Part shown: piece by piece, positions 7,072-32,000 of the stretch
Layout: every line of letters starts with the position of its first letter
Position numbering within the stretch: the first letter of the stretch is position 1
Source of the DNA: Candidatus Saccharimonadota bacterium
GTDB taxonomy: Bacteria > Pseudomonadota > Gammaproteobacteria > Enterobacterales > Enterobacteriaceae
DNA: 32,000 nt
Assembly (NCBI RefSeq): GCF_000185985.2
Contig: NC_014909.2
Location: forward strand, 120,001 to 152,000
Reading direction: 5' to 3'
Notes under the pieces: model-generated
Database searches by the model: none
What the model was told of the DNA's origin: nothing
Seen by the model: only the letters and a program-made list of their open reading frames with translations
Made by a program: the position numbers and the translations under genes

Positions 7072-7666
7072 TCGATAGATGGTGTATTATCTATAATTGA
7101 TGATTGAATTATAATTATTTTTGTGTATGAGTAATATGTTTAATTTGATATTAAATAGGTTAATGATGATATCATCAGGTGTTGTCTCGTTTTTGATGTA
7201 TTATTTTCATTTCTGTGATGCAAATAAAATTTTAAAAATCATATGTAATAATAACAATTGGTCAGGTTTTTGAAAATTTAACTGTTTTAATAATAAATCA
7301 TTTTATATGAATATTATTATAAAGAATTATATTTTTGTAATTTTTTAAGATTATAAAATTTTACTCATGTAATAAAATATAATTTGATTTAATATATTGA
7401 TAAATTTAAATAAGATGTAATGTTATCAGGTAAATAGAAAATTATTGTAATTCGGATTAGTTTTGTTTGAGAAACAGTTATGTGAAGCAGTGTATTCAAT
7501 TGTAAATATGTATTTTTATAAATAGTTAACTAATGTTTTTAAAAATTATTTTAATGTATTAATATTACTTATTTTATGATATAATTAATTCTAATTTGTG
7601 TTTGTTCTAATTTTATATTATTCTGTTATAATTATGTCTAATGTTATAAATGACAGTGAAAATAAT

Positions 7667-7744
7667 ATATAACTTGATCTGAGCATATATCCTGTTTCAA
7701 AAATTTTTAACATTAACAGGACATGTGCTCAGATCAAGTTATAT
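7667..7744 (+). promoter_or_regulatory. Long stem-loop immediately upstream of the thrA ribosome-binding site (function unknown; occupies the position of the E. coli thr leader/attenuator)
   Basis: 7667-7696 pairs with 7715-7744 over 30 positions: 28 Watson-Crick pairs, 1 G-U and 1 mismatch. The outer 19 bp (atataacttgatctgagca / tgctcagatcaagttatat) are perfect. The loop is 18 nt (7697-7714). The SD AGGAG at 7747-7751 and ATG 7759 follow directly. There is no U-run after the stem. Confidence 0.6.
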
Positions 7745-16741: not shown

Positions 16742-17687
16742 ATGGAATTAATACGGGGATTACATAACATAAAACCTTATCATAAAGGATGTATATTAGC
16801 AATGGGTAATTTTGATGGTTTTCATAGAGGACATCAATTATTAATTAATATATTATGTGAAAAAAAAAAATTATAAATTACCTATTATGGTAATGATTTT
16901 TGAACCACACCCTAGAGAATTTTTCTCTAAAATAGTAAGGATTCGATTAAGCAAATTTAGAGATAAAATTCAATATTTATTTACCGCTGGGGTTGATATA
17001 ATTTTATGTATAGCATTTAATAAAAAATTTGCTTCTACTGAAGCATATAATTTTGTTAAAAAAATTTTAATATATAAGTTAGGGGTGCAATTTATTTGCA
17101 TTGGTAATGATTTTAGGTTTGGAGCATGTAGGAAAGGAGATTATAAATTTTTGAAAAAAATAGGCAATCAGGAAGGATTTCAAGTAGCATGCATAGAGAC
17201 TTGTGTTGATAAACTTGGCCAAAAAATAAGTAGTACTTCAATAAAAATTGCTTTAATGGAAGATAGAATTATGGACGCTGAGTTTTTGATGGGTCATGCT
17301 TATCGTGTTTTTGGAAAAGTTATTCATGGAAATAAATTAGGTCGTATTATTGGATTTCCAACAGCTAATGTATTTTTACAAGGAAAACAATTACCTATGA
17401 ATGGTGTGTATGCGGTAACAGTGTATGGTGTTTGTGACTTACCATTACCAGGTATAGCAAATATTGGGATACGACCAACAATTACTGGATCTTCAATTCA
17501 ACAATTAGAAGTACATATCTTCAATATATCCATAGACTTATATTTACGTTATATTACTGTAGTATTTCTTAAAAAAATACGTAATGAGCAGTATTTTCGA
17601 TCTATACGTATGCTTAAAAATCAAATTAAGAATGATATGTTAATAGTATGTGAGTATTTTAAAAAATACCCTAATATAATGAGATAG
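16742..17687 (+). pseudogene. ribF: Bifunctional riboflavin kinase / FAD synthetase, reading frame interrupted at an A11 tract (a frameshifted gene by standard annotation rules; may still be expressed via slippage)
   Basis: The 5' fragment runs from ATG 16742 to TAA 16874-16876: MELIRGLHNIKPYHKGCILAMGNFDGFHRGHQLLINILCEKKKL*. It aligns with E. coli RibF MKLIRGIHNLSQAPQEGCVLTIGNFDGVHRGHRALLQGLQEEG... The remainder is in the +1 frame (ORF-track 16857..17687: ..NYKLPIMVMIFEPHP...GFPTAN...IRNEQYF). The frames switch inside the A run at 16860-16870. Confidence 0.85.
16860..16870 (+). repeat. A11 homopolymer at the ribF frameshift site
   Basis: Counted directly: a at 16860 plus ten a at 16861-16870, flanked by tgtg and ttat. 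Confidence 0.95.
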
Positions 17688-21058: not shown

Positions 21059-21150
21059 AATTTTAATTATATATTTTGAATAAAATAGAGTAGGATTCTG
21101 ATCATGTAAAATATATAAATTTTTATGTTAATTAAAATACGGAGGAAATC

Positions 21151-28411: not shown

Positions 28412-29239
28412 TTAACAAGGAGGATTACAAGGTTGGCGTATGATTGTTTTGTTTTCCCACTTTAATGCAGTTAATTCTCCTCCCCAACAACAACCAGAAT
28501 CTAGTCCATAAATTCCAGGGGGGGTTTGAGTATTTTTTAATGATGCCCAATGCCCAAAGATTATGCTATATCCAGTAGTAGTCTTCAGTTTTGAGAATTT
28601 GAACCAAGGATAAATGTATGGAGGAGCATATTGAGGAAGATGTTTATATTGTAAATTTAACGTTCCATTCAAGTCAATATATCTCATTCTAGTAAATAAA
28701 ATAACATTGTGTTGTATTTTTTCTAATTGATTAATATCAATATTGTGAATTTTAATTTTATTTTTTGAAGTTCTATTAGTAAAGAACAGTAATTCTGGAT
28801 GATTGCTAATTAAAATATTTTCTATTTCTTGAGCATACAATTGTGCTTGATTAATACTCCATTTGGGATACAGCCCAGCATGACTCATTAATAATTTTTT
28901 ATTTTTATCTATATAAAGGATAGATTGATGACGTAACCAATCTATTAGTTCATCTGAATCTGGAGCATTAAGAATATCATTAAAATGATGATTAGTTCTT
29001 TTTTTTTTTATAGAAAAAAATGTTTCAAGTAAATGTAAATCGTGGTTTCCTAATACAGTGCAAGCGTTTTTTTTAAAGCTTTTTATTAAACGAAGAATTT
29101 CTAATGAATTTGGACCTCTAGCAACTAAATCTCCAGTTAAACAAAGAAAATCAAAATCGGGGTCAAAATTAATATAATCTAGCATATGTCTTAAGTTTTT
29201 GTAACAACCATGAACATCACCTATAAAGTAGGTAGCCAT
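28412..29239 (-). CDS. apaH: Bis(5'-nucleosyl)-tetraphosphatase, symmetrical
   Basis: From the second ATG (29239), MATYFIGDVHGCY matches E. coli MATYLIGDVHGCY. The ORF-track start 29242 adds one Met. The metallophosphatase motifs GDLVARGP, GNHD, HAG and GHW are present. The gene contains an in-frame A11 run (plus-strand T11 at 28999-29009). Confidence 0.93.
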   Translation of the reverse strand: MATYFIGDVHGCYKNLRHMLDYINFDPDFDFLCLTGDLVARGPNSLEILRLIKSFKKNACTVLGNHDLHLLETFFSIKKKRTNHHFNDILNAPDSDELIDWLRHQSILYIDKNKKLLMSHAGLYPKWSINQAQLYAQEIENILISNHPELLFFTNRTSKNKIKIHNIDINQLEKIQHNVILFTRMRYIDLNGTLNLQYKHLPQYAPPYIYPWFKFSKLKTTTGYSIIFGHWASLKNTQTPPGIYGLDSGCCWGGELTALKWENKTIIRQPCNPPC

Positions 29240-29355
29240 CATTATTTTGTATTAATAAAATATTTATTTTATTTTATTATTATCTTGTATATGAAGAGAT
29301 AATATATATGTATATGCGGTGTATGATAACAATTTAATTGTTGAAAATCAATATA

Positions 29356-31180: not shown

Positions 31181-32000
31181 GTTTATTAAGAATTTTGATA
31201 TATGATTCAGATTTTAATTTTTGAATCCAATTATTTAAAGTTTCATTGTATTTTTGAGATAATAAAAATAAATAAGCTCGTTCTCGTATTATTTCAGAGT
31301 AATTTACTTTTTTAATATCTATTAATTTTATTATACCCCATTTATTAAAAATATATATAGGATCGCTGATTTGATTTTTTTTTAGGGCGAGTAAAGATTT
31401 TTGTACCGATAAATCAAAGTGATCTAAATCTATCCACTGTTCTAAATGGTCGTAGTTTTCAGAATAAAAATTTTTCGATTTTTCTTTCAGAACTATATCA
31501 AAAGTAGTACGATGATTTTCGAGTTCTGTTTTTAGTTGTAGTAATTGTTTTTTGATATATTGTTCGTTGGATACATGTTTGAAAAGAATGCTATTTATTT
31601 TTACTCTGATTATAGGAAATGTATGTTGTTTGTCAAGTATATCTTGAATCGCTAAAATATGAATACCGTCATAAGAATGAATTGGACCGATAACGTCTCC
31701 TGGTTTTGCTGATTGTAGAGATTGATCAAAAATCATTGGAATATTTTGCCATGAGATCCACGATGTTTTTTTTACTGTAATTCTTGGAAAGATATTGTTA
31801 CTGTAATATGTATATATTAAATCTTGAGCATTTGTTTTAGATTCTATTTTTTTAATTAATAGTCTTGATAAATTATTGTAACTGTTAATTTGTTGAGATG
31901 ATGGATATATGGGTAGCTCAATAATAATATGCATTAATTTAAATTTTTTTTTGAAATCAACAAAATTTGATTGTTGGATGATGTCATTGATTTCATATGA
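31161..32000 (-). CDS. surA: Periplasmic chaperone / PPIase SurA, 3' two-thirds (5' end lies beyond the window edge)
   Basis: The ORF-track product begins at Met 31934. However, the same frame stays open to position 32000 (..SYEINDIIQQSNFVDFKKKFKL-MHIIIELPIYPSSQQI..). KLMHIIIELPIYPSSQQIN aligns with E. coli SurA [20 protein letters not shown] (around residue 170). PGDVIGPIHSYDGIHIL aligns with KGDIVGPIRSGVGFHIL. The C-terminal SESYIKILN aligns with ASAYVKILSN. Confidence 0.88.
   Translation of the reverse strand, partial: SYEINDIIQQSNFVDFKKKFKLMHIIIELPIYPSSQQINSYNNLSRLLIKKIESKTNAQDLIYTYYSNNIFPRITVKKTSWISWQNIPMIFDQSLQSAKPGDVIGPIHSYDGIHILAIQDILDKQHTFPIIRVKINSILFKHVSNEQYIKKQLLQLKTELENHRTTFDIVLKEKSKNFYSENYDHLEQWIDLDHFDLSVQKSLLALKKNQISDPIYIFNKWGIIKLIDIKKVNYSEIIRERAYLFLLSQKYNETLNNWIQKLKSESYIKILNKHDSIQR

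Follow-up and report, generated by a model that had tools for sequence, protein, structure and literature searches.

A frameshift within an A11 tract of ribF in Candidatus Blochmannia vafer, a candidate for rescue by transcriptional slippage

The interrupted ribF gene and its neighbourhood

In Candidatus Blochmannia (Blochmanniella) vafer str. BVAF, a carpenter-ant symbiont and the source genome of the 32,000-nt stretch of DNA analysed here (the window), ribF is split by a frameshift inside a homopolymer of exactly 11 A. By analogy with other long A runs, slippage of RNA polymerase on this run is, in our estimation, the most likely route to full RibF, with a probability of roughly 60%. The frameshift is real, and it is not new. 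Williams and Wernegreen (2010, BMC Genomics 11:687; PMC3017870) reported that ribF, dnaG, dxs and pth are frameshifted in poly(A) or poly(T) tracts only in B. vafer, annotated ribF as an intact ORF of 315 aa with the frameshift position marked, and proposed that such genes are rescued by transcriptional slippage. The present analysis adds the −2 register of the lesion, in which an A13 transcript would be canonical and an A10 transcript would carry a one-lysine deletion, the placement of the tract in helix alpha1 and the suitability of Glu-C for detecting the junction. The parts of the locus are the following (positions within the window).

16742 to 16876, + strand: 5' fragment of ribF in frame 0, 44 codons and the TAA stop (ORF list, Pfam FAD_syn match)
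16805 to 16834, + strand: GNFDGFHRGH codons with the nucleotidyltransferase HxGH motif (sequence)
16860 to 16870, + strand: A11 homopolymer, site of the frame change and proposed slippage site (sequence; A7 to A9 lysine-codon runs in relatives)
16869 to 17687, + strand: downstream part of ribF in the +1 frame, from AAT (Asn) to TAG, with the rest of the FMNAT module and the whole riboflavin-kinase module
16874 to 16876, + strand: TAA closing frame 0, three bases past A11 (sequence, ORF list)
16887 to 16889, + strand: earliest in-frame ATG of the downstream frame, 10 nt past the TAA; candidate re-initiation start for a 266-aa product without HxGH
17352 to 17369, + strand: GFPTAN codons, riboflavin-kinase motif (sequence)

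The A run is preceded by GTG and followed by TTATAA. ORF1, which begins at ATG 16742 and whose full frame-0 translation is MELIRGLHNIKPYHKGCILAMGNFDGFHRGHQLLINILCEKKKL, ends with ...GNFDGFHRGHQLLINILCEKKKL before the TAA and covers, from the FMN adenylyltransferase module, strand beta1 and the first part of helix alpha1. ORF2 (16857-17687, 276 codons, TAG at 17685-17687) is shifted by one base relative to ORF1. The reading frame breaks after codon 43, no single unbroken ORF encodes both domains, and the ORF list contains no other frame break in ribF. This is the arrangement described in the initial annotation of the window, namely a ribF gene split within A11, with 44 codons carrying GNFDGxHxGH that end at TAA 16874-16876 and 270-odd codons carrying GFPTAN in the +1 frame; the sequence, the ORFs and the break in the Pfam match all bear it out.

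The 44-aa fragment alone matches the Pfam FAD_syn profile over positions 3-33 (E 5.6e-9; 36.4 bits at a cut-off of 27), while ORF2 takes up the same profile over 33-157 (E 2.5e-32) and matches Flavokinase over 1-120 of 124 (E 4.2e-34). The FAD_syn domain is cut precisely at A11 (profile 33/33) and nowhere else, which is not a matter of chance. When the frame is repaired, FAD_syn (PF06574) is matched over 3-157 of 158 profile positions (E 2.1e-45) and Flavokinase (PF01687) over 1-120 of 124 (E 5.3e-34). An AlphaFold2 model of the 315-aa form, computed with a 120-sequence alignment, has a mean pLDDT of 90.2 and a pTM of 0.84. The predicted fold places helix alpha1 at residues 29-45, a loop at 46-48 and strand beta2 at 49-55, and the A11 tract would encode E40-K43, the final turn and a half of helix alpha1, after HxGH.

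Judged by its sequence, the gene is ribF, encoding the bifunctional riboflavin kinase / FMN adenylyltransferase. In a protein search the repaired product is 100% identical over its full length to the 315-aa RibF deposited for B. vafer BVAF; the best match after B. vafer is B. floridanus with 69%, and other Blochmannia reach 56-69% identity. A contig search with the same protein gave Curculioniphilus at 56% identity, otherwise distant Sphingomonadales and similar, and no Blochmannia. With canonical RibF or type I FAD synthetase (E. coli; 2x0k; 1mrz from Thermotoga maritima; 3op1) the B. vafer gene shares both Pfam domains, HxGH and GFPTAN, the family-invariant residues, the rpsT-ribF-ileS-lspA-ispH neighbourhood and a confident predicted fold. 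The difference is that canonical RibF is encoded by an unbroken ORF, whereas the B. vafer ribF is interrupted after codon 43.

The window has a G+C content of 28.4% and the gene order rbfA, truB, rpsO, pnp, deaD, holD, thrABC, dnaK, dnaJ, rpsT(−), ribF, ileS, lspA, ispH, dapB, carAB, folA, apaH(−), rsmA(−), pdxA(−), surA(−). Scans of the window for tRNA genes and Rfam families gave no match. The enterobacterial synteny rpsT(−) / ribF / ileS / lspA / ispH is present (neighbours assigned by NCBIfam), and the same order recurs at seven other Blochmannia loci. As ribF stands at the head of the ribF-ileS-lspA-ispH string, its premature stop could exert polarity on ileS. The most likely start of ileS is ATG 17699, 11 nt past the ribF stop; the mechanical ORF list has GTG 17687. 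Further downstream, ispH comes next after lspA, separated from it by 92 nt (21059-21150), and fkpB is absent between them. In E. coli, fkpB lies between lspA and ispH.

Register and age of the frameshift

The register of the lesion can be read from the spacing between HxGH and the downstream FEP. This gap is 22 residues in 119 of the best 120 homologues, 20 in one and 21 in none; the deposited B. vafer translation is counted among the 119, and for true relatives the figure is 118 of 119. Repair of the tract to A13 gives a gap of 22 and repair to A10 a gap of 21, and the A13-equivalent repair is exactly the deposited 315-aa translation (...CEKKKNYK...). Across the junction, the solved RibF structures of Streptococcus pneumoniae (3op1) and Corynebacterium ammoniagenes (2x0k family) align with the 315-aa form without gaps. 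A codon alignment with seven other Blochmannia ribF genes (L022-L028) points the same way, as the distance from the Cys/Asn codon to the conserved TAT-AAA-(TTA)-CCT is 13 nt in B. vafer and 15 nt in the relatives. Given these 13 versus 15 nt and the 22-residue spacing, the net genomic change is −2 nt, not +1. Loss of 3 nt in frame and a later gain of 1 nt would be the other possible history, which again is no simple +1.

The initial annotation had assigned another register: it took the junction at A10 to fit E. coli without a gap and saw the simplest history in the insertion of a single A. Anchored on HxGH and FEP, the A10 form comes out one residue short, and the register of −2 nt replaces the single insertion. 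The misalignment arose because two LL dipeptides were paired that differ in their distance from HxGH: judged by the enterobacterial consensus GHQALI.., that of E. coli sits one residue further away than the one in B. vafer (HQ-LL).

Tract length could be compared across species, where the homologous A runs are in frame and shorter, A9 in L023, A8 in L024 and A7 in L025, and interrupted in B. floridanus; therefore the lysine-codon patch is ancestral and has been lengthened in B. vafer. For sister strains the comparison found no partner, since exact-product look-ups (the 276-, 266- and 264-aa ORF2 forms, P0001) returned no other B. vafer assembly on record. The Blochmannia ribF genes of L023 (SRR32934348), L024 (SRR32934591) and L025 (SRR32934364) come from Logan assemblies, are all in frame, and are 67-69% identical to that of B. 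vafer, as near as B. floridanus. These symbiont genomes could help to date the B. vafer frameshift.

The protein on both sides of the break is well conserved. B. vafer keeps all 52 columns that are invariant among the 120 homologues, and the 5' fragment accounts for nine of these (N9, G22, N23, F24, D25, G26, H28, G30 and H31); within GFPTAN, T208 and N210 are invariant, and G205, F206, P207 and A209 are at least 90% conserved. Against the seven other Blochmannia, codons 1-39 have a protein identity of 72-85% and a pN of 0.09-0.17, compared with a pN of 0.18-0.23 downstream; the nominal dN/dS of codons 1-39 is 0.07-0.19, at a dS near saturation. Sites that are invariant in the other seven lineages are altered in B. 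vafer in 1 of 23 cases upstream and 8 of 121 downstream, similar to the same-site changes of the other lineages (0-2 upstream, 2-7 downstream). By these three measures, invariant columns, pN and lineage-specific changes, no erosion of the 5' fragment is detectable. This agrees with the published comparison, in which the four frameshifted genes show no unusual acceleration: set against the B. floridanus lineage their rates rise 1-1.5 fold, inside the distribution seen for 570 orthologues (PMC3017870).

The lack of erosion is consistent both with a rescue that selection maintains and with a very recent lesion. It is a weak argument against the latter, because pairwise comparisons cannot date the frameshift. 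The initial annotation had held that the intactness of both halves argues against long-standing pseudogenisation; the intactness stands, with 52 of 52 columns kept, and the weight placed on it carries no further than this against a recent event. The frameshift, known from the read set of one colony, is specific to B. vafer, with the seven other Blochmannia in frame, and Williams and Wernegreen allow that such frameshifts may be recent (PMC3017870). If that is the case, the lack of decay says nothing. A second B. vafer genotype was found in the same reads, with 37 indel polymorphisms of which all 23 in homopolymers are intergenic (PMC3268670), so the ribF tract should be alike in both genotypes. 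The two genotypes are nearly identical, with 159 synonymous differences over about 95,900 synonymous sites (dS about 0.002; PMC3268670), and a lesion common to both therefore tells little about its age.

The gene might stand at the first step of pseudogenisation, with a young and effectively null lesion and with flavins drawn from the host or from residual activity. We regard this as a real possibility on the unlikely side. Besides the restriction of the frameshift to B. vafer, the shallow depth of the shared lesion and the inability of pairwise conservation to date it, the state of the genome fits such a view: poly(A)-frameshifted genes number 8 in B. vafer and 4 in each sister genome, and 31 genes are lost or eroded (PMC3017870). 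Against it, none of the six Blochmannia genomes compared has lost ribF, not even the two that lost riboflavin biosynthesis (PMC4389277), the B. vafer gene has no second lesion, and every invariant residue is kept. There is also a mechanistic ground: slippage of an enterobacterial RNA polymerase on A11 is large, reaching 20-25% (PMC4256274), and a complete null is therefore unlikely.

An error of sequencing or assembly, with a true tract of A10 or A13, is hardly credible. Homopolymer runs invite errors, and the library had gone through PCR, with duplicates making up 42% of the reads. However, the genome (CP002189) is an Illumina majority consensus with 542x coverage after removal of duplicates, its frameshifts were manually curated and annotated on purpose (PMC3017870), and the later polymorphism study of the same reads found no homopolymer indels in coding sequence (PMC3268670).

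Transcriptional slippage and other routes to a flavin enzyme

In B. vafer, ribF carries a genuine genomic frameshift inside a lysine-codon run that has grown to A11. A faithful A11 transcript would yield the 44-residue peptide that stops at TAA 16874-16876. By reiterative transcription, RNA polymerase would slip on the A11/T11 hybrid and produce a mixed pool of mRNAs, among which A13 (+2) transcripts would encode the 315-aa enzyme of canonical length and A10 (−1) transcripts a 314-aa enzyme with one lysine fewer. According to the structural model, the lysine that an A10 product would lack lies at the C-terminal end of helix alpha1. The output of full-length RibF would be lowered, not abolished.

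The closest precedent is tssM1 of Citrobacter rodentium (Gueguen et al. 2014; PMC4256274), an A11 tract in which deletion of one A restores the frame. There, mass spectrometry, controlled with a synthetic RNA, revealed mRNAs of 10-15 A's, the full-length protein amounts to about 20-25%, and a change of AAA to AAG abolished the effect (PMC4256274). Both tracts have the same length, need a shift of −1 or +2, and are transcribed by an enterobacterial-type RNA polymerase; on this analogy, A10 and A13 transcripts of ribF are both to be expected. In tssM1 the short and the long product are both required in a set ratio, so that the frameshift is programmed, whereas the short product of ribF is a 44-residue peptide with no plausible function. 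The tssM1 tract lies near the 3' end of its gene and that of ribF at codon 40. Slippage at the ribF tract and activity of the resulting products are inferred. Two points speak against slippage as the source of RibF: the product expected to be commonest, from −1 (A10), has the spacing of 21 that occurs in none of 119 relatives, and the product of canonical length requires +2.

By its anatomy, ribF belongs to the class of poly(A)-frameshifted genes of endosymbionts. Functionally the class is defined by a mixed mRNA pool that includes in-frame species and by full-length protein, which for ribF are predictions. In this class, described from Blochmannia and Buchnera (Tamas et al. 2008 PNAS; Wernegreen et al. 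2010 MBE), the indel lies within a homopolymer that reaches 9-10 A (or T) or more and the gene is otherwise intact; ribF has a single indel in a run of 11 A and is otherwise intact. Like those genes it is conserved, resides in an AT-rich obligate insect endosymbiont and, in the published comparison, shows no unusual acceleration of rate. Unlike the ancient members of the class, which are conserved between species, the ribF frameshift is lineage-specific, and the argument that selection maintains it is therefore unavailable. In long poly(A) runs of Buchnera and Blochmannia, 12-50% of transcripts are corrected according to a review (PMC5009743). The initial annotation had put ribF forward as a candidate for poly(A) slippage with reference to Tamas et al. 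2008, a citation that agrees with the reference list of PMC3017870; the idea coincides with the proposal of the genome's authors (PMC3017870), and the conservation tests are consistent with it.

Correction might instead occur in translation, with ribosomes sliding by +1 or −2 on the AAA codons, and explain the full-length product better than mRNA heterogeneity does. tRNA-Lys can re-pair perfectly at any place in A11, and frameshifting on A runs has long been known and can offset indels in organelles and endosymbionts (PMC5009743). The tract has no Shine-Dalgarno-like motif on its 5' side, however, and the sole hairpin nearby (16877-16894) is weak (z = −2.1). The hairpin sequence, TTACCTATTATGGTAATG, encodes the conserved LPIMVM and is identical in the in-frame genes of L023 and L024; a downstream RNA structure as frameshift stimulator was rejected on the weakness of the hairpin and this identity. 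In tssM1, also A11, the heterogeneity was located in the mRNA (PMC4256274). We thus consider translation as the main route unlikely. Sliding of ribosomes on poly(A) could nevertheless add to transcriptional slippage, and the sequence cannot tell the two apart.

The known example of a +1 ribosomal frameshift, that of prfB (RF2), resembles ribF in that a +1 change is needed for an essential protein and a stop follows shortly past the shift site. A prfB-like site has a Shine-Dalgarno stimulator or a downstream structure and is conserved in relatives. In ribF, unlike prfB, no Shine-Dalgarno stimulator precedes the shift site, and the shift codon does not place the stop in the A site; nor do the relatives, whose genes are in frame, share the arrangement. 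A prfB-like signal is thus absent here.

A further source of flavin enzyme would be a shortened protein of 266-276 aa with kinase activity and without FMN adenylyltransferase activity, made from GTG 16857 or by re-initiation at ATG 16887. The Flavokinase domain is complete (E 4.2e-34), and the position of ATG 16887 shortly past the stop would suit a termination-reinitiation event. Neither GTG 16857 nor ATG 16887 nor ATG 16893 is preceded by a Shine-Dalgarno-like motif, whereas deaD, dnaK, dnaJ and rbfA in the same window do have one, and an internal start driven by a Shine-Dalgarno sequence was rejected on this absence. Since HxGH is missing, such a product would make no FAD. The 5' fragment and the remainder of the FMNAT module are also conserved as in relatives, and a role as kinase needs neither of them. 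A product of this kind may well be made alongside slippage; as the whole story it is quite unlikely.

Going beyond tolerance, the A11 tract might be used, with slippage setting a fixed low ratio of bifunctional RibF (A13/A10) to a kinase-only product from ATG 16887. This is a speculation to which we attach very little weight; if true, the balance of FMN to FAD would be tuned by the tract, as in the two-product tssM1.

Transcriptional slippage on A11 remains the reading that we prefer, and its products would differ at the junction. Cleaved with Glu-C, the A13-type product would give the junction peptide KKKNYKLPIMVMIFE and the A10-type product KKNYKLPIMVMIFE; trypsin would miss the junction because it is rich in lysine, for which reason Glu-C is suited. 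If slippage supplies RibF, the gene would add to the cases in which frameshifts in essential genes are tolerated by AT-rich, recombination-free endosymbiont genomes, since an unfaithful polymerase lets some functional product through at long A runs. The consequence for ribF would be a throttled supply of FMN and FAD in a symbiont whose tasks include provisioning the ant host.

Other homopolymers and features of the window

A second A11 tract lies in apaH on the minus strand (ORF 28412-29242), where an in-frame sense A11 occupies 28999-29009 (T11 on the plus strand; ..FFSIKKKRTN..). The ApaH protein has 276 aa and matches the full length of the ApaH model. If slippage acts here in the same way, a sizeable share of apaH transcripts should be out of frame, and the tract is a ready site for the next genomic frameshift. 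In rpsO, the apparent start ATG 1779 is followed at once by A10 (ATG AAA AAA AAA AGT; 1779-1791), and the match to the S15 model begins at residue 8 of the longer ORF from GTG 1761. A gene for a ribosomal protein thus has a slippery tract at its very start.

Of the genic homopolymers in the window that reach at least 9 nt, all 8 read as poly(A) on the sense strand and 0 as poly(T). Poly(A) outnumbers poly(T) on the sense strand by 12 to 1 at 8 nt, and the two stand at 16 and 13 at 7 nt. It follows that the long genic tracts consist, in essence, of repeated AAA codons for lysine. A frameshift in surA at A9 (31944-31952) was considered and rejected, because the frame reads through; the gene runs off the end of the window.

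Between holD and thrA, 650 bp (7072-7722) contain no ORF of at least 80 aa, no tRNA and no Rfam match, the Thr leader included. This gap is unusually long for a compact genome (the window is 89% coding) and may be the remnant of a decayed gene or a thr regulatory region. The GC skew is strongly positive in all 2-kb bins of the window (0.18-0.35), and the plus strand carries 19 of the 24 genes; both are consistent with the plus strand being the leading strand across the window.
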